NCBI GenBank assembly: GCA_048938385.1
Contig: JBHLMG010000009.1
Location: 1 to 64,000, forward strand
Direction: 5' to 3'
Origin: Promethearchaeota archaeon
Lineage (GTDB): Archaea > Asgardarchaeota > Hermodarchaeia > Hermodarchaeales > Hermodarchaeaceae
DNA: 64,000 bases
Under the pieces are notes generated by a model. The model worked only from the letters and a program-made list of their open reading frames with translations. It ran no database searches and was not told where the DNA came from. Positions 2,590-9,945 of this stretch are shown one piece after another (within the stretch, counting starts at the first letter, position 1; each line of letters starts with the position of its first letter). The position numbers were made by a program, and so were the translations under genes.

Positions 2590-3261
2590 TCAGAACACGC
2601 TTTTTCTAGTCGGGGATGGTTGGTAAAAGGGACCGTGTATTGGGAAGATGACTTCTCGAAATGCTTCAGCGTATTCGCATCCTGCCTGTACGCCTCGAAG
2701 ACGGGCTTTTTGCACATTGAATGCAAGGTAAAAGTCGTTGGTTTTTTGTAGCTGACTTTGATACGCTCGAATTGCTTGCTCCTTCTTTTCCATCGTTTCT
2801 GTGATGTCTACAAATATCGTAGGCGCTGGAAACAAGGAGTTGATTTCCATGCTCAGTAATCGTTTGGGACGCCAAGCTAGCTCCTTGTATTGCGTGGAGT
2901 GTCCTGCCCATTCAGCTGCACGCAAGACTGCCTGATGCACAATTCGGTGATCTGGATGATAATCGAACTCACTGTGGGAGATAATCACTTCAGGTTGAAT
3001 TTGTTGTATCACAGGAATAATCGTATTCGCGGTTTCAGTTATAGTGAAGGCAAGTTCAGGACCTTCAATGGCCACGACTTTGGCACCTAGCTTTCCACAA
3101 GCGGTCTGTAGTTCCTGGTGTCGTGCGGGATTACCAGATAAACAACAGACTGTCACGGAGTTACCCCGTGTGGTTTCTAAGGCAATACTACCTCCGCATC
3201 CAAAGGTTTCATCATCGGCATGGGCACCAATGACCAGTAAACGCTTTGACGATTCAGGCAT
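2590..3261 (-). CDS. bshB: PIG-L/LmbE-family deacetylase, BshB-like
   Basis: AHADDE metal motif, HPDH motif, AYQSQ, YAEAF; divergent from bshA. Confidence 0.75.
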   Translation of the reverse strand: MPESSKRLLVIGAHADDETFGCGGSIALETTRGNSVTVCCLSGNPARHQELQTACGKLGAKVVAIEGPELAFTITETANTIIPVIQQIQPEVIISHSEFDYHPDHRIVHQAVLRAAEWAGHSTQYKELAWRPKRLLSMEINSLFPAPTIFVDITETMEKKEQAIRAYQSQLQKTNDFYLAFNVQKARLRGVQAGCEYAEAFREVIFPIHGPFYQPSPTRKSVF

Positions 3262-3375
3262 AACGAGTAGATACAGCTTTCCTCATCTAAAGGTTTCCCT
3301 GTTTGGTAGGATGAGGAAGATTTCACCAAAGGTAACACATAAGGGTGGGAATGACAGGGTGCCAAAGGATTAATC

Positions 3376-4482
3376 ATGCGAATAGGCATCACGTGCTACC
3401 CTGGTGTTGGTGGTTCTGGTCTTCTAGCAACGCGCCTTGGTGTTGAACTCGCTAAACGCAATCATGAAGTCCGGTTCATCACTTACGAAGTACCATTTGA
3501 ACTGCAAGAAGGAATTCATGAGAATGTCAAAGTTGACCTAGTCGATGTGTTAGATTACCCACTTTTTCGCTACCCCCCATATACCGTAGCATTAGCATCC
3601 CGAATGGCTCAAATTGCTCAAAAACATCAACTCGATCTCTTGCACACCCACTATGCTATTCCCCACGCGCTATCTGCCTATGTTGCGCACCAGATGACCG
3701 GAATCCCATACATCGTAACATTGCACGGTTCAGATGTACATACCTTAGGCGCTGACCCAGCTTACCAGCCTGCCACACGGTTTGCCGTAGAAGCTGGTAA
3801 TGCCGTCACCTGCGTTACCAAGCATATCTGTCAAACAGCGGAACAGACCTTAGGAATTCGGTGTAAAATCGAACCCATAACGAATTTCACTGATCCAGAC
3901 CTTTTCAAACCTAACGCTTGTGAATTTCCAGTCGTGAATGGAAAACGCCAGTTAATCCATGTATCTAATTTTCGTCCAGTCAAGCGTGTAAGTGACCTTG
4001 TGACCGCCTTTGCACAAATAGCTGATGAGGTGCCTGATGTTGAACTGCTCTTACTTGGCGATGGACCTGAACGTCCTGGTGTCGATCGGCTAATTCGGAA
4101 ATTTGAGCTTAATAATCGTATCCGGTGTCCTGGGTTCAAGCGAGATGTCTATCAATACCTTCGATGCGCCTCGGCTTTTGCCTTAAGCTCCGAATTAGAA
4201 GGTGCTCCACTTTCATTACTTGAAGCGATGAGCTGTGGATTGCCCGTAGTAGCTACTGAAGTGGGAGGGATTCCTGAGATTGTAAAAGATGGAGAAAATG
4301 GGTTGCTTGTCCCCTTTGGAGATATTGATGCCTTAGCAGAAAAAATGTATGTACTCCTTACGGATCGAATATTGGCTAGTCAGTTGGGCGCACAGGCCCG
4401 GAAAACGATACTCGAAAATCACACAGCCGAAAAAGTGGTCCCCCAATATGAAGCGATTTACGAAGGAGTGATTCACGACTAA
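3376..4482 (+). CDS. bshA: GT4 N-acetyl-alpha-D-glucosaminyl L-malate synthase
   Basis: MRIGITCYPGVGGSG, YPLFRYPPY, HTHYAIPHA, TLHGSDV and HVSNFRPVKRV are characteristic of BshA. Confidence 0.9.
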   Translation: MRIGITCYPGVGGSGLLATRLGVELAKRNHEVRFITYEVPFELQEGIHENVKVDLVDVLDYPLFRYPPYTVALASRMAQIAQKHQLDLLHTHYAIPHALSAYVAHQMTGIPYIVTLHGSDVHTLGADPAYQPATRFAVEAGNAVTCVTKHICQTAEQTLGIRCKIEPITNFTDPDLFKPNACEFPVVNGKRQLIHVSNFRPVKRVSDLVTAFAQIADEVPDVELLLLGDGPERPGVDRLIRKFELNNRIRCPGFKRDVYQYLRCASAFALSSELEGAPLSLLEAMSCGLPVVATEVGGIPEIVKDGENGLLVPFGDIDALAEKMYVLLTDRILASQLGAQARKTILENHTAEKVVPQYEAIYEGVIHD

Positions 4483-4523
4483 TCAAGACCCTGTGTTTTT
4501 CGTGAGCAATCTTGGTGGTTAGT

Positions 4524-6293
4524 CTATTTCGCATTCGGGTTATTTGGTAAGAAGTAAGTGGCTGAGGAAGGAGTGTAGGTTTGGTAATGGCTAAGCAAGC
4601 GTGGAAAGTAATTTTGTGGACCTAAAGAAATGGCTCCGTCTATCCATGCAAAGCTTACTTCTTGGCCAAGGCGTTCGGGCGCATATCGTCCAAACATTTG
4701 TGAGAGGTAGGTTTGGAGTATTTGTCGTTGACGCGTGTAGCGACCCACCATGACTCGGTATGACTCTCTTATCTTAGCATCGGGAGAATCGCGCTGTTGA
4801 CGAATAGCCTCATTTCGGTCTTGTTCTAACTGTTGTTCTGCTTGAATGAGTTGTTCAACCGAATGGGCGATGAGTTCTGCACTGGCACCAAAAAGGGATC
4901 GCACTACTCCACTATTTTTTTCTTCAGATGCGGTAACGATGGCTTTCCCATAAAATCGAAGCTCTTTGAGGTCAAGAGGCATTATTCCTTCCTGCTCAAG
5001 TATTTGGGCTTGCTGCGTGGTCCATGGATTACCATAGTATTGCCGGGTGTATCGGAAGAATATTGGAGCCAAGCTATCAAGAGCCTCAAGGGCTGGTGAC
5101 ACTTGGGCATGGTAGGAAGTCTCTCCGGATCCGCCGATGTGAAGAATTATAGGAGTATAACTCTGCACAAGAAAAGCTCGAGTATCTACACGAGGAGAAA
5201 GAAATTCTGCCCAGTCAGAGAGATCCGGTGAAGTGGGTTTGAGTTCTAGCGTATGGGTGACCTTGCATTTGGGGCAACGCGCACTGATTTCCATTCTCAT
5301 AGCTGATTCATTAGCTAAAGTGGGGTCTAATCTGGTTCGATTACAACCAGCTGTCGGGCATTCAAGTTGGAAAGGAACATAGTCTTCTGTCCGGTGCCCG
5401 ATTCCAGGTTGATAACCTAGCTGTTGGAGCTGTTCCGCAGCTTGGTTAAGTGCCTGAATATAGCGAGAACGATTTCGAACATGGATGAGAAATTCAAAAG
5501 CTGGAAGCATGAGAAGGCGGAGCGTGGGATGGGAAAATTGTTGAAAAAGAATTCCACTATCTTGTGACAAGTTAGCAAGCTGCATCCAAATTAATAGGCT
5601 CCAATCTGATATTGTCTTTGCTTTGTCAAAGGCGTGTTGAATGATTTTGATGACCGATTGAACCCGATCCTCATACTCTGCCTTCTGGTGTGATGAGGAT
5701 TTTGTTACTAATTCATGGTAGGTTGAAGCGATTTTCTCCAGAGCTTGATTCAACCATGAACGCGAGGGTAGGGGCAGTGCATGCATAGGCGATTGTCGAA
5801 ATTCACGGGGCACATTAAATGAGAAACTAAGACCCCGTGGACCGGGACTAGGAAGGTGAATGACAGTCAGCTCTTTCTGTTCATGATCATGATCGCCAAC
5901 AAACATAATTGATGCGGTGTTCTGAAGCATGGCAATCTGGCCGATAGCTGCCAACTTGTTGATAACCAATCCAGGTCCACCAAGCAGGCTAGGTTGGTGA
6001 CCTGCCTCAACAGCTGCGTGTTGGGATTCGAGCAATTCGAGTCGATGGGTCACCATCGGCGTGAGCATCTCGTGCTTCTGATGAATTTCCTTAATTGTCT
6101 GACACAATACTATAAGCCGCTCATGAGTAAAGAGCGGTTGCTTCTCTTCACGGTACACAGCGGAGAGGGGTCGACTCAACGCAATAGCGTCGTTTACATT
6201 CAATGGGATAGATCCCCAAAATTGAAGAGCTGCCTCGTTACCATCGAACACGAATGAAGCATACAGTTTAGACGGGGCAGTGGTTGAAGTCAC
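4524..6293 (-). CDS. bshC: Bacillithiol cysteine-adding enzyme BshC-like protein
   Basis: AGHQPSLLGGPGLVINK, GDHDHE, LSPRVDTR and IGGSGETSYHAQ match BshC motifs (GQQxxLxxGPLYxxxK, EDHD, GGPGExxYxxQ); adjacent to bshA. Confidence 0.75.
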   Translation of the reverse strand: MTSTTAPSKLYASFVFDGNEAALQFWGSIPLNVNDAIALSRPLSAVYREEKQPLFTHERLIVLCQTIKEIHQKHEMLTPMVTHRLELLESQHAAVEAGHQPSLLGGPGLVINKLAAIGQIAMLQNTASIMFVGDHDHEQKELTVIHLPSPGPRGLSFSFNVPREFRQSPMHALPLPSRSWLNQALEKIASTYHELVTKSSSHQKAEYEDRVQSVIKIIQHAFDKAKTISDWSLLIWMQLANLSQDSGILFQQFSHPTLRLLMLPAFEFLIHVRNRSRYIQALNQAAEQLQQLGYQPGIGHRTEDYVPFQLECPTAGCNRTRLDPTLANESAMRMEISARCPKCKVTHTLELKPTSPDLSDWAEFLSPRVDTRAFLVQSYTPIILHIGGSGETSYHAQVSPALEALDSLAPIFFRYTRQYYGNPWTTQQAQILEQEGIMPLDLKELRFYGKAIVTASEEKNSGVVRSLFGASAELIAHSVEQLIQAEQQLEQDRNEAIRQQRDSPDAKIRESYRVMVGRYTRQRQILQTYLSQMFGRYAPERLGQEVSFAWIDGAISLGPQNYFPRLLSHYQTYTPSSATYFLPNNPNAK

Positions 6294-7507
6294 TGCTCAG
6301 ACTCCTCCCGCGGTTGTCGTCGAATAGCAAATCCCACAAGGCAACTAAGAAGGGATAAGGTACCAATAAGTGCGATTAATGTAGCAACATTCGTCGCAAA
6401 ATAAGCGAAATCTACTAAGGGTATTGAGCCGAGAGAGGTCCATTCTTGAAAATCGGTTCGGTGAAGCTGATAAGCAAAGAGGTTAGCATATTCAGTACGC
6501 CGCGTAGCGATGTAGTCAGTGGCCACGATTTGCCATAATTGGACGAAGGGAAGGTTCGAGGCGTAAAGGGATTCGTAATAGGTCTTGGATGGCTCAACAC
6601 CTACTCCACTAGCGGTGAGATCGAAAGGCAGCCAGCCCCATGGGGGAACATAGACCATAGCCCACCCATGACCGATGGCGTTTTTCCAGTCCACATAGAG
6701 GTATGCCTCTTCGGCTATTGACCCCCAAATGAATCCATTTGTGCGAGCGCCGTCTTGGAACCAGTGACCGGTTGTTAGGTAACAGGGGATTCTTAAAATT
6801 CGGAGCAGAGCAATAAGTAAATTCGATTGGTCATCACAGTCACCAATTTGACTAACTATGGTTTCCTCTGGATACTGTGGTTCAGTAATACCTGTTGATC
6901 GAATGATGTTTGACTGTATCCACCGAATTGCTGAATAAACGAGGGCGAGCACATTATCCTGGGTTGCGTTCGCCAGGCTCCTCTGAACATCCATGGCAAT
7001 GTCTACAAGAGAGGAATTCCATGTTTTCCACAGCGAAGTTCCTCGTGTATACCAAAGGTAATCATCTGTCCCAATCTGGTCCTCAATGTCATCGAGGGTA
7101 CCTGATTGGATGACACTAATTACTGGAAGACTTGGTCGATGATCGAGTACCGTGAAGAGCCACTCTTCCTCCCACCGAATCCTATCTTGGGGCAATAAGG
7201 TAGTAGTTAAATTCAATCGTATTCTTGGATTTCCATCGCTGTCTGTTCCAAAACCGATTGGTTCGATGGATTGGTTGTTGTAACTGAAATCGAAGTTCAG
7301 TTGTTCACAGGTTTGCCAAGAAGTGTTTCCGATGTAATCCCAATAGGCTGTTATTGGAAGGGATTGGTTTCCTGAAACGATTAGCGAACCTGAGAAGCTC
7401 ACTCGCCAGTGATGGACGTATTGAAAAGCTGATGTGGGGTGTGGCACTAAAGCTAGTAGGATGAGAAGAAGTAACAGTGTAACTATCCATGGACGATATT
7501 TCGACAT
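6290..7507 (-). CDS. Secreted, C-terminally anchored transglutaminase-like protein
   Basis: Signal peptide; GDCDD...GHGW...W-LPFDLT Cys-His-Asp triad; C-terminal TM helix plus RRQ; stop overlaps the bshC start (GTGA). Confidence 0.8.
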   Translation of the reverse strand: MSKYRPWIVTLLLLLILLALVPHPTSAFQYVHHWRVSFSGSLIVSGNQSLPITAYWDYIGNTSWQTCEQLNFDFSYNNQSIEPIGFGTDSDGNPRIRLNLTTTLLPQDRIRWEEEWLFTVLDHRPSLPVISVIQSGTLDDIEDQIGTDDYLWYTRGTSLWKTWNSSLVDIAMDVQRSLANATQDNVLALVYSAIRWIQSNIIRSTGITEPQYPEETIVSQIGDCDDQSNLLIALLRILRIPCYLTTGHWFQDGARTNGFIWGSIAEEAYLYVDWKNAIGHGWAMVYVPPWGWLPFDLTASGVGVEPSKTYYESLYASNLPFVQLWQIVATDYIATRRTEYANLFAYQLHRTDFQEWTSLGSIPLVDFAYFATNVATLIALIGTLSLLSCLVGFAIRRQPREESEQ

Positions 7508-7679
7508 GCGGAACAGCCTTGCCCCAAGTCATCTAGCAGGGAATCAACTGATTTAAGCTCTACCTTTTTTCTGACGCCCTCCAACCCACTGGGCTACAGA
7601 CACCCTTTATGTACCAATCCTTTCGTATTACCAGTATTTTTTAGCTAGAAAGTGGAAAGGATAAGAACACATTTCATGT

Positions 7680-7751
7680 TTCGAGGGAAGCTCGCAACGA
7701 ATTTGAAAGCGAAAGATATTGAACTAACTCTTGCTTTCTTCGAGGGAAGCT
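7680..7751. repeat. 13-bp direct repeat TTCGAGGGAAGCT upstream of the E2F-like gene
   Basis: Exact copies at 7680-7692 and 7739-7751. Confidence 0.7.
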
Positions 7752-7787
7752 TTTCCTTGGGCATGACAGACTGGGCGGGATATCGAC

Positions 7788-8270
7788 ATGAAATTAGGCG
7801 AAGTTGCCAATCATGTGATTGCTTTTTTGCAGAATCATACTGACCAGGAATTTACTGCTAATACGCTCCTCATGCATATAGGCTTGCCACTTAAAGAAAA
7901 ACGAAGGCTTTACGATGTGATTGAAGTCCTGTCTTGCGCAGGGCTTGTAGATATTCGCAAGGATTCACGAAAGCGATACTTCAGATGGAAACTACCCACT
8001 CTTTCCCCTACACCGTCTGAAATGAACCTTGAATTACCAGCTGATCCGTTATTTCAAGAAGCTGGTACTATTCTTCATCTTCTCCTACACCTTGGGCCAG
8101 GGGCGTTTCAAGAGCTGAGCAATGATTCATCGCTCTCCATGATAGAGCGAGATATCAAACGCACCGTATGGGGTGCTAATGCTGTTAGCGTTGTGCGCGT
8201 ATCTCTTCAAAATCAACAGGGTCGAGTTTTAAAAGAGACCTCCCATGGGACACTTCAAGCCGAAGTCTAA
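7788..8270 (+). CDS. Winged-helix DNA-binding protein with E2F/DP-family signature
   Basis: KRRLYDVIEVLSCAGLV...YFRWK matches the E2F/DP recognition helix KRR[IL]YD[IV]xNVLxxxGL[IV]...W[KL]; N-terminal LGEVANHVIAFLQ resembles E2F helix 1. Confidence 0.7.
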   Translation: MKLGEVANHVIAFLQNHTDQEFTANTLLMHIGLPLKEKRRLYDVIEVLSCAGLVDIRKDSRKRYFRWKLPTLSPTPSEMNLELPADPLFQEAGTILHLLLHLGPGAFQELSNDSSLSMIERDIKRTVWGANAVSVVRVSLQNQQGRVLKETSHGTLQAEV

Positions 8271-8340
8271 TAGAGACTCGGCGAGTAGAAGTCAAAAAGA
8301 GTAAAATTCAGCAGAACCAGAACAAAAATTAGTGTAAAGC

Positions 8341-8730
8341 TTATTCCTGCTCAGTGAGATCTTTTCGAACTGCTTCATAAAAGCTGACTTCGTCTTCTCC
8401 ACGCCGCTTCACGGTTATTTTAGGCTCAACACCTTCTAGCTTTCGTTGCACGAGGATAACACCAGTTTTTGGAATTCGCGTAAATAATTGTCCGCGTGAG
8501 TAAAGTGTGATGGCGATATCTTCGATTCGGGAGGCGAGTTCTGACTTTGTTTTATGAAGCGTCTCTAGATAGGTCACAGCATCAGGAAGAAAAATTAGTC
8601 GAATAAGCTCATCCCGCTCCTTTTCACGCTGTGTCTTTACTTCCTTCAACGCTTCTCGTCGCTGTTGCTCTTGTACGAGCGCTTTCAGTTTTTGCTCTCG
8701 GATGCGTTTAAGCTCTTCAGACTCGGACAT
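8341..8730 (-). CDS. PDCD5-like dsDNA-binding protein
   Basis: EELKRIREQKLKAL...IRLIFLPDA..YL...K.ELA..IE; start reassigned to ATG at 8730 (MSESEE). Confidence 0.7.
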   Translation of the reverse strand: MSESEELKRIREQKLKALVQEQQRREALKEVKTQREKERDELIRLIFLPDAVTYLETLHKTKSELASRIEDIAITLYSRGQLFTRIPKTGVILVQRKLEGVEPKITVKRRGEDEVSFYEAVRKDLTEQE

Positions 8731-8811
8731 GGCAAACCACCAAGCGACGAGGAGTGGCACCTGTTCGCTACTTTTATAGATTTCGGGTTTCCTCATACTC
8801 GAGACAAAGAT

Positions 8812-9945
8812 ATGAACCGTCATAAACGGATTATCACTAGACATCTATCTCGTTTCTTCTTACTCACTCTACTATGTGTTATTGTCTATGGGGGCGTTCC
8901 TCAAGTTCAACTCGTTAATGCTCACTCAGGATTAACCTCTCTTTGGGAATATTCCACGGCTCCCAATCAAGTGTCATTAGAATTTAACGGCACCGAGGCC
9001 TTCGTATATTTAGAGGCTCAATGCGATTTTGGGCCTCGCCCTCCTGGCTCGAGTAATCTTACCGCTTGCGGTGATTATATCATATCAATTCTGGAGGCTT
9101 ATGGGTGGCCGGTCCAAACGCAAACTTGGACCTACTTAGACACACCTCTACGAAATATCGTTGCAGGAGCCATAGCGCTACCAAGGTATGTACTACTCGC
9201 ACATTACGACACACGACCAATTGCTGAAATGGATCCAGATCCATTAAATCGGACCAGGCCTATTCTGGGTGCGAATGATGGCGCCAGTGGAGTCGCAACC
9301 CTTCTCGAACTCGCTGCTGTTCTTCCCCCCGAAGCCAAGAACTCTGTTGCTCTCCTTTTCGTTGACGCTGAAGATTCTGGCAATGTTAATGGCTGGGAAT
9401 GGATAGTTGGTTCTACTTACTATGTCAATGGGCTCAGCACGGTGCAGCGATTGAATATCCAAGCAGCGATTTTACTGGATATGATGGGTGATGCTGATCT
9501 ACAATTAAAACGGGAAGGGTATTCAACGCCTTCCTTAGCTAATGTTATCTGGCAGATTGCCACTGATCTCGTTTACGCAGATGTCTTCCTGAATGTATCT
9601 GGTTATAGCATACTTGATGATCATCATCCGTTCCTTGCTGTAGGTATTTCAGCTGTTGATATCATTGACTTTGACTATCCATACTGGCATACGCTAGCAG
9701 ATACCCCGGATAAATGCGCTCCTGAGTCTCTAGAAGCTGTTGGGCGTGTCGTTGAATCCTTCGTTGAACAGCAGCTAATAAACCCAACAATTTTCACTCC
9801 CACTCAACCATTGGTGATTCCTTATCTGGAGTTGTTACTGTTAGTTGTTGGATCTGCGATGATAGTAGGGTTGCTGATACTATTTATTTTCTGGCAAAAA
9901 AAACCAAAGAATGACTACCAAAAAATAGCTGGTTATTGTTGCTAA
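8812..9945 (+). CDS. M28-family peptidase / glutaminyl cyclase-like, membrane anchored
   Basis: AHYDTR, GANDGASG, DAED, LLDMMGD, DDHHPF, DFDYPYWHT; signal peptide and C-terminal TM; start reassigned to 8812. Confidence 0.85.
   Translation: MNRHKRIITRHLSRFFLLTLLCVIVYGGVPQVQLVNAHSGLTSLWEYSTAPNQVSLEFNGTEAFVYLEAQCDFGPRPPGSSNLTACGDYIISILEAYGWPVQTQTWTYLDTPLRNIVAGAIALPRYVLLAHYDTRPIAEMDPDPLNRTRPILGANDGASGVATLLELAAVLPPEAKNSVALLFVDAEDSGNVNGWEWIVGSTYYVNGLSTVQRLNIQAAILLDMMGDADLQLKREGYSTPSLANVIWQIATDLVYADVFLNVSGYSILDDHHPFLAVGISAVDIIDFDYPYWHTLADTPDKCAPESLEAVGRVVESFVEQQLINPTIFTPTQPLVIPYLELLLLVVGSAMIVGLLILFIFWQKKPKNDYQKIAGYCC

Follow-up and report, generated by a model that had tools for sequence, protein, structure and literature searches.

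Organization of the E2F-like locus

The window, by which we mean the whole stretch of 64,000 nucleotides that was analysed, carries a gene for a 160-residue protein with an N-terminal winged-helix domain resembling that of E2F and DP proteins and a lineage-specific C-terminal domain. The features of the gene and its surroundings, together with those of the related loci discussed below, are listed in Table 1. The start codon of the gene is well supported, since all orthologues begin with MKL-x-E and a GAGGA block lies upstream of it. Identity among homologues of the protein is 57-82%. Both peptides quoted in the sequence-only reading of this DNA were found in the protein, LGEVANHVIAFLQNHTD as residues 3-19 and KRRLYDVIEVLSCAGLVDIRKDSRKRYFRWK as residues 38-68, and the RRLYD motif is encoded where that reading had placed it, as R39-R40-L41-Y42-D43. 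When the genome from which the window comes (a Hermodarchaeota-like Asgard MAG of 2.48 Mb in 51 contigs, 89.8% complete) was searched in six frames with PF02319, the Pfam family E2F_TDP, this gene was the sole site recovered (E 2.6e-8), and the same search detected no E2F_TDP site in 14 control prokaryote genomes. In public sequencing runs, DNA of the gene was found in sediment metagenomes, and no RNA run with its sequence was listed.

The neighbours of the gene are archaeal and include Alba, a PDCD5-like protein, an M28 peptidase, a transglutaminase-like membrane protein and a BshC-like protein. More than 20 MAGs, which come from several studies and belong to two genera, keep this order. The named homologues of the protein belong to Thorarchaeota/Promethearchaeota MAGs, and the syntenic loci are from Hermodarchaeota/Candidatus Hermodarchaeum (GTDB genomes). 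In Hermod-type genomes the 3' ends of the PDCD5-like and E2F-like genes face each other, and this arrangement was also found at two distant loci from small genomes (L006 1944-2318 and L009 1947-2321), whose proteins closely match Odinarchaeia entries. A GT1 glycosyltransferase gene and the BshC-like gene (PF10079, 54 bits) lie adjacent at 2590-6293, and this pair is likewise syntenic in Hermod-type MAGs.

Table 1. Coordinates of the features of the E2F-like locus and of related loci. Positions are those of the window unless a contig or locus is named.
Feature	Position	Strand	Basis or remark
E2F/DP-like protein gene (P0001)	7788..8270	+	ORF list and translation; end coordinate counts the stop codon
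E2F/DP-type winged-helix DNA-binding domain, residues 3-67	7794..7988	+	PF02319, AF2 model, PDB matches
RRLYD, the RRxYD DNA-recognition motif	7902..7916	+	Invariant in alignments A1, A2 and A4
Lineage-specific C-terminal domain, residues ~80-160	8025..8267	+	Conserved in Hermod-type and Odinarchaeia-type proteins
GTATTACCAG block, then T-rich TATA-like box	7625..7645	+	Nearly invariant in 12 upstream regions; flanks diverge
Structured 5' leader, 7674-7686 pairing with 7754-7766, variable hairpin inside	7674..7766	+	RNAalifold
Conserved block upstream of the ATG, consensus GACTGGGCGAGGATATC, with Shine-Dalgarno-like GAGGA	7769..7784	+	Upstream alignment
PDCD5-like dsDNA-binding protein, convergent neighbour	8341..8844	-	PF01984, 32.8 bits; synteny L003, L006-L024
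Alba protein with Lys/Glu-rich repetitive N-terminal extension of ~60 residues	10087-10545	+	Adjoins the locus in orthologous MAGs
Two genuine TrmB regulators (G000, contig C23)	99125-99370; 71431-71676	-; +	Loci L026, L027
Thorarchaeia/Baldrarchaeia-type E2F-like loci	L002 1144-1692; L004 1510-2022; L005 1138-1665	-; +; -	Proteins P0044-P0163, P0037

Upstream region and predicted leader RNA

The E2F-like gene is separated from the divergent transglutaminase-like gene by an intergenic region of 280 nt, which includes a TATA-like element for the latter and shows islands of near-invariance when compared among 12 orthologues. One of these islands, the GTATTACCAG block followed by a T-rich box, is the likely promoter of the E2F-like gene, as judged from its position and conservation. 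The leader predicted downstream is about 120 nt long and contains a covarying helix. Alignment of the orthologues with RNAalifold gave 13 pairs, 7 of which carry compensatory changes, and 92% of the helix cells were paired, compared with 40-56% when the partner strand was slid by 1-3 columns. The window's own leader sequence folds alike (z = -1.9). A search of positions 7400-8400 against Rfam returned no match. The helix could be cis-regulatory, for example in translational control or autoregulation.

The conserved block next to the ATG is unique in the genome. Orthologues have the Shine-Dalgarno-like consensus GGGCGAGGAT there, and the window's GGGCGGGAT differs from it by the loss of 1 nt. 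An exact 12-nt repeat, TTCGAGGGAAGC, is found genome-wide only in this upstream region; the first copy supplies the 5' side of the covarying RNA helix, and orthologues lack the exact second copy, reading GGGCGAGGAT at the second site. TTCGAGGGAAGC and GGGCGGGAT were considered as E2F sites and rejected, the former being a helix strand, the latter a form of the Shine-Dalgarno-like GGGCGAGGAT, and neither occurring elsewhere in the genome. Based on the covariation of the helix, the GGGCGAGGAT consensus and the lack of conservation of the second copy, we prefer to regard these elements as belonging to the ribosome-binding region and to a structured 5' leader, a more likely reading than a set of E2F sites.

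The winged-helix domain

A Pfam scan of the 160-residue protein gave a match to E2F_TDP of 33.5 bits (E 3.5e-8, gathering cut-off 25.7) that covers residues 3-67, equivalent to model positions 5-63 of 65. E2F_TDP was the best family match and exceeded its cut-off, whereas TrmB, the sole further family matched, reached 16.3 bits against a cut-off of 25.6; an NCBIfam scan of the same protein gave nothing meaningful. The homologues that were scanned scored 32.9-68.4 bits with E2F_TDP, all above the cut-off, and no other family exceeded its own. PF02319 matches in whole genomes of relatives reached 46.5 bits.

The profile match and the profile comparison agree with the claim that the helix-1 pattern and the spacing to the wing tryptophan fit the E2F/DP family. 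The recognition helix contains K38-R39-R40-L41-Y42-D43, and W67 lies in the wing. Conservation was assessed in A1, an alignment and profile of 18 close homologues of the Hermod type, in A2, a more diverse Asgard profile, and in alignment A4. R39, R40, Y42 and D43 are invariant across all three, such that RRxYD did not vary among the homologues examined, and the wing tryptophan is nearly invariant among the Asgard homologues. The eukaryotic E2F1-6/DP1-3 proteins (1CF7, the E2F4-DP2-DNA complex) share PF02319, the helix-1 pattern, RRxYD and the spacing of the wing tryptophan with this protein. The asparagine of the eukaryotic "NVL" sequence is present in E2F4, E2F8 and DP2, whereas the corresponding residue is Glu here, as the sequence-only reading had observed, Asp in Odin-type and Ala in Thor-type proteins. 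With this residue replaced in the Asgard proteins, their DNA specificity may differ from that of the eukaryotic factors.

We compared the profiles with 177,635 PDB sequences. E2F8 (4YO2) and E2F4 (1CF7) came out on top with the A1 profile, although weakly, and the A2 profile ranked E2F8 first (1.2e-11, 48 bits), followed by E2F4 (1.7e-6), TrmB (8.5e-4) and DP2 (0.012). The best-scoring solved relative is therefore E2F8. E2F7 and E2F8 act independently of DP and carry two tandem winged helices per chain, with which they recognise DNA through two domains, whereas the Asgard protein of 160 residues has one. In a library of 1.84 billion representative proteins, the A1 profile had 11 matches at E <= 1e-3, one of which was the protein's own cluster. 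In a Pfam scan of eight of the other ten, E2F_TDP was in every case the one family to pass its cut-off; the remaining two, P0035 and P0036, align over their full length with the Odin-type protein P0034.

In the AF2 model, the N-terminal domain is a confident winged helix (H3-16, H24-31, H35-50, E54-59, E62-67), with pLDDT values of 86-95 over residues 1-67. Fold searches with the full model (Foldseek PDB, VIA) returned generic winged helices, namely ArsR/HlyU, Z-alpha, Fur/PerR, MarR and Hop2, the last with Z 11.1 and an rmsd of 1.8 over 70 residues. No E2F chain was among the fold matches listed, and generic winged helices do not discriminate between families. Structure prediction thus bore out the winged helix but did not single out the closeness to E2F4, DP2 or E2F8, and it is the sequence profiles and the conserved motif, not the fold, that make the case for the family. 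With E2F_TDP as the best profile match and RRxYD unvarying, the grounds named in the sequence-only reading for giving up the claim were not borne out. At the level of sequence, the resemblance of the protein to E2F/DP is far beyond chance, and we regard the domain as in all probability a true E2F/DP-family DNA-binding domain.

The C-terminal domain and the missing eukaryotic parts

Similarity to E2F/DP stops at about residue 68. The C-terminal domain that follows has invariant residues at M118, R121, D122, K124, R125 and L140, and its M-x-x-R-D-x-K-R module is common only to the Hermod-type proteins and to Odinarchaeia proteins of 152 residues, which together account for just four of the 50%-identity clusters of the library of 1.84 billion proteins. 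When modelled alone with AF2, the domain had a pLDDT of 77. A comparison with PDB folds gave a best Z of 3.2 (SEA/dystroglycan-like, over 48 residues), with nothing convincing; the best TM against the Atlas was 0.42, and a protein-atlas feature search gave a score of 0.75, which is within noise. No Pfam or NCBIfam match was detected in the domain. The absence of any profile match or similar fold agrees with the statement of the sequence-only reading that the C-terminal 90 residues or so are not a coiled-coil/marked box.

E2F/DP and Rb together are the core of the switch by which eukaryotic cells enter S phase. Eukaryotic E2F and DP proteins have 300-450 residues and include a coiled-coil/marked-box or DP domain, whereas the Asgard protein has 160 residues and neither domain, and ends at residue 160 without a pocket-binding or transactivation tail. 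No match to the coiled-coil/marked-box (PF16421) or the DP domain (PF08781) was detected in the protein or in the genome, which is 89.8% complete. Furthermore, E2F1-6 and DP1-3 work with a heterodimer partner and Rb, whereas in this genome, at the same completeness, we found neither a second E2F/DP paralogue, the Asgard profile otherwise recovering only TrmB proteins, nor RB_A, in a search that had no positive control among prokaryote genomes. The proposal that the protein is a prokaryotic member of the E2F/DP family therefore holds for its DNA-binding domain, but the dimerisation and regulator-binding parts of the family are absent.

The tail of the relatives in Thorarchaeia, Baldrarchaeia and some other groups is built differently and consists of a heptad-rich coiled coil of about 50 residues followed by a small beta-rich region. 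Profile-profile comparison with hhalign detected no relation between this tail and that of the Hermod/Odin type. Searching PDB sequences with the Thorarchaeia-type tail gave coiled-coil noise only and no match to the E2F/DP coiled-coil/marked-box. The order of winged helix, coiled coil and beta region in the Thorarchaeia/Baldrarchaeia proteins recalls the arrangement of DNA-binding domain, coiled coil and marked box in E2F/DP, and one could envisage that their coiled coil and beta region are a forerunner of the eukaryotic coiled-coil/marked-box module.

Distribution among Asgard genomes

A survey of Asgard genomes, which had been suggested with the original claim, showed E2F_TDP matches to be patchy: of the 400 genomes of the phylum that were covered, 136 had a PF02319 match above the cut-off, in a family-wise pattern. 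One family of 135 genomes had three matches, one at 27.9 bits, barely above the cut-off, and two below it. PF02319 was found in 0 of 31 and 0 of 22 genomes of other families, several of these genomes being near-complete. Some Asgard genomes (G306-G308, G081, G084-G086, G042 and G313) contain two PF02319 genes, so that the products might pair as heterodimers in some lineages.

Small E2F_TDP proteins of another kind (P0038-P0042; locus L028 6001-6621, plus strand) have 195-248 residues and score 48-68 bits. Two E2F_TDP stretches were detected in three of the five by Pfam and in all five with the A1 profile (HMMER), a layout like that of E2F7/8. The cluster of P0038 is found on compact, intron-less metagenomic contigs at most 73 kb long, whose genes are mostly unknown, apart from some for Kelch-repeat and DAGAT proteins; these contigs have the look of a giant virus.

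Discussion

The features described above suggest how the protein might work. Its RRxYD helix would bind dsDNA in the major groove and would read a GC-rich, GCGC-like core as in eukaryotic E2F/DP, whose RRxYD motif touches GCGC in the core of the site (Medina 2016, citing Zheng 1999). Given that the gene is present in a single copy (in a genome 89.8% complete), the protein would act as a homo-oligomer rather than as an E2F-DP heterodimer; most simply, it would bind a roughly palindromic site as a homodimer. A prediction of a two-copy complex with A1 gave a score of 0.40, the mark to reach being 0.42, and was not counted as evidence either way. The C-terminal module, which has no recognizable fold, would by our guess provide oligomerisation or input from a partner or ligand. 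With these parts, the protein would repress or activate its targets from near their BRE/TATA elements, as archaeal regulators ordinarily do, and its own expression is probably tuned through the conserved structured leader. As the best overall explanation we favour, with good confidence, a small DNA-binding regulator that has an E2F/DP winged helix and is predicted to work as a homo-oligomer on a GC core. Analogy with the eukaryotic factors makes it reasonably likely that this regulator is a sequence-specific transcription factor, and its binding to a GCGC-like core specifically as a homodimer is a tentative suggestion to which we give slightly less than even chances. A role in the control of replication or cell-cycle genes is possible, although it drew no support from this analysis.

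The most probable of the alternatives accepts the E2F-type winged helix but assigns the protein to chromatin or the nucleoid, to the binding of origins or replication structures, or to RNA binding in company with the PDCD5-like protein and Alba. The convergent adjacency of the PDCD5-like gene, conserved from Hermod-type to Odin-type genomes, and the presence of Alba 2 kb away would accord with such a role, as would the invariant basic R-D-x-K-R helix of the C-terminal module and the failure to detect enrichment of E2F-type sites in promoters. The intergenic DNA of the genome contained 23 sites of the eukaryotic consensus TTTSSCGC, and 250 permuted versions of the motif averaged 28, which means no enrichment, although a small regulon would escape this comparison. 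However, the E2F-like and PDCD5-like genes are convergent and not co-transcribed, their adjacency is missing from the Thorarchaeia-type loci in the synteny comparison, and the invariant, base-reading RRxYD argues for sequence-specific recognition. We therefore consider this alternative unlikely and the sequence-specific regulator the better account.

A second alternative is that the protein is a generic archaeal regulator of the TrmB type, in which an E2F-like R-x-YD helix arose by convergence or through descent at the level of the clan. In sequence, no prokaryotic winged-helix family comes closer than TrmB (PF01978; 3QPH), which is second-best in Pfam (13-25 bits across homologues) and third-best among the PDB matches. 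Its recognition helix contains R-V-Y-D, its coiled coil after the winged helix resembles the layout of the Thorarchaeia-type relatives, and the generic prokaryotic winged helices returned by the fold searches are in keeping with this alternative. Nevertheless, the TrmB scores all lie below the cut-off, whereas E2F_TDP exceeded its own in every homologue scanned, and no TrmB-type protein was among the 11 library matches of the Hermod-type profile. The sugar-binding or PLD-like C-terminal domain of TrmB is also absent from the 160-residue protein. The same genome encodes two genuine TrmB proteins, one of them fused to a PLD-like domain (PF13091), and it contains no nearer paralogue of the E2F-like winged helix. 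These two proteins scored 77 and 74.5 bits on TrmB, but with the Asgard profile their E values were no better than 1e-3 to 1e-2. These results leave a TrmB-like identity with little probability, less than that of a chromatin or RNA-binding role.

Finally, contamination of the MAG by eukaryotic or viral DNA, or recent horizontal transfer into it, might be suspected, because E2F_TDP is otherwise eukaryotic and because compact metagenomic contigs that resemble viruses encode small proteins with E2F_TDP in tandem. However, contamination is effectively refuted by the conserved archaeal synteny. The contig around the gene is long and archaeal, the orthologous MAGs have the same genes next to it, the family-wise distribution in the phylum is consistent, and the protein has low identity to eukaryotic domains, which leaves the whole proposal a negligible chance of being correct.

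The preferred reading, a small regulator with an E2F/DP winged helix, is in agreement with published work, which answers the question, left open when the protein was first noticed, of whether such homologues had been reported. Eme et al. 2023 (Nature 618:992) describe Asgard E2F/DP homologues in Supplementary section 4.1.5, where they are said to be present in most Asgard groups and absent from other archaea, with a conserved DNA-binding domain, including the residues that contact bases, with homology confined to that domain, and with the dimerisation and regulator-binding domains absent. Their sequence table includes Hermodarchaeia entries, and they credit others with having pinpointed the presence of E2F/DP in Asgard archaea earlier; the homologues are mentioned again in an Annual Review article of 2024. 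As they are described in that section, the homologues belong to the same family and lineage as the protein studied here and led to the same conclusions, with nothing essential being different. The finding of an Asgard E2F/DP homologue is thus correct but already known. What we add is descriptive and does not amount to a discovery: the two unrelated tail types, the synteny with the PDCD5-like neighbour and the structured leader RNA, none of which is stated in section 4.1.5, and the viral-looking tandem forms. If the coiled coil and beta region of the Thorarchaeia/Baldrarchaeia proteins were indeed a forerunner of the eukaryotic module, this would contradict the published statement that the Asgard homologues are without a dimerisation domain.

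A more far-reaching proposal is that the Hermod/Odin tail is an undescribed oligomerisation or signal-input module and that the protein is a homodimeric "proto-E2F" that binds a palindromic GCGC-type core at replication or division promoters. We think it improbable that all of this holds; if it did, E2F-driven cell-cycle transcription would predate eukaryotes. As a single-domain, single-copy archaeal relative, the protein represents the simplest available form of the E2F/DP DNA-binding module, and it is small and soluble-looking, so that its DNA specificity and oligomeric state are directly measurable. Such measurements would tell whether recognition of GCGC, and perhaps control of replication genes, predates the Rb/cyclin-CDK layer.
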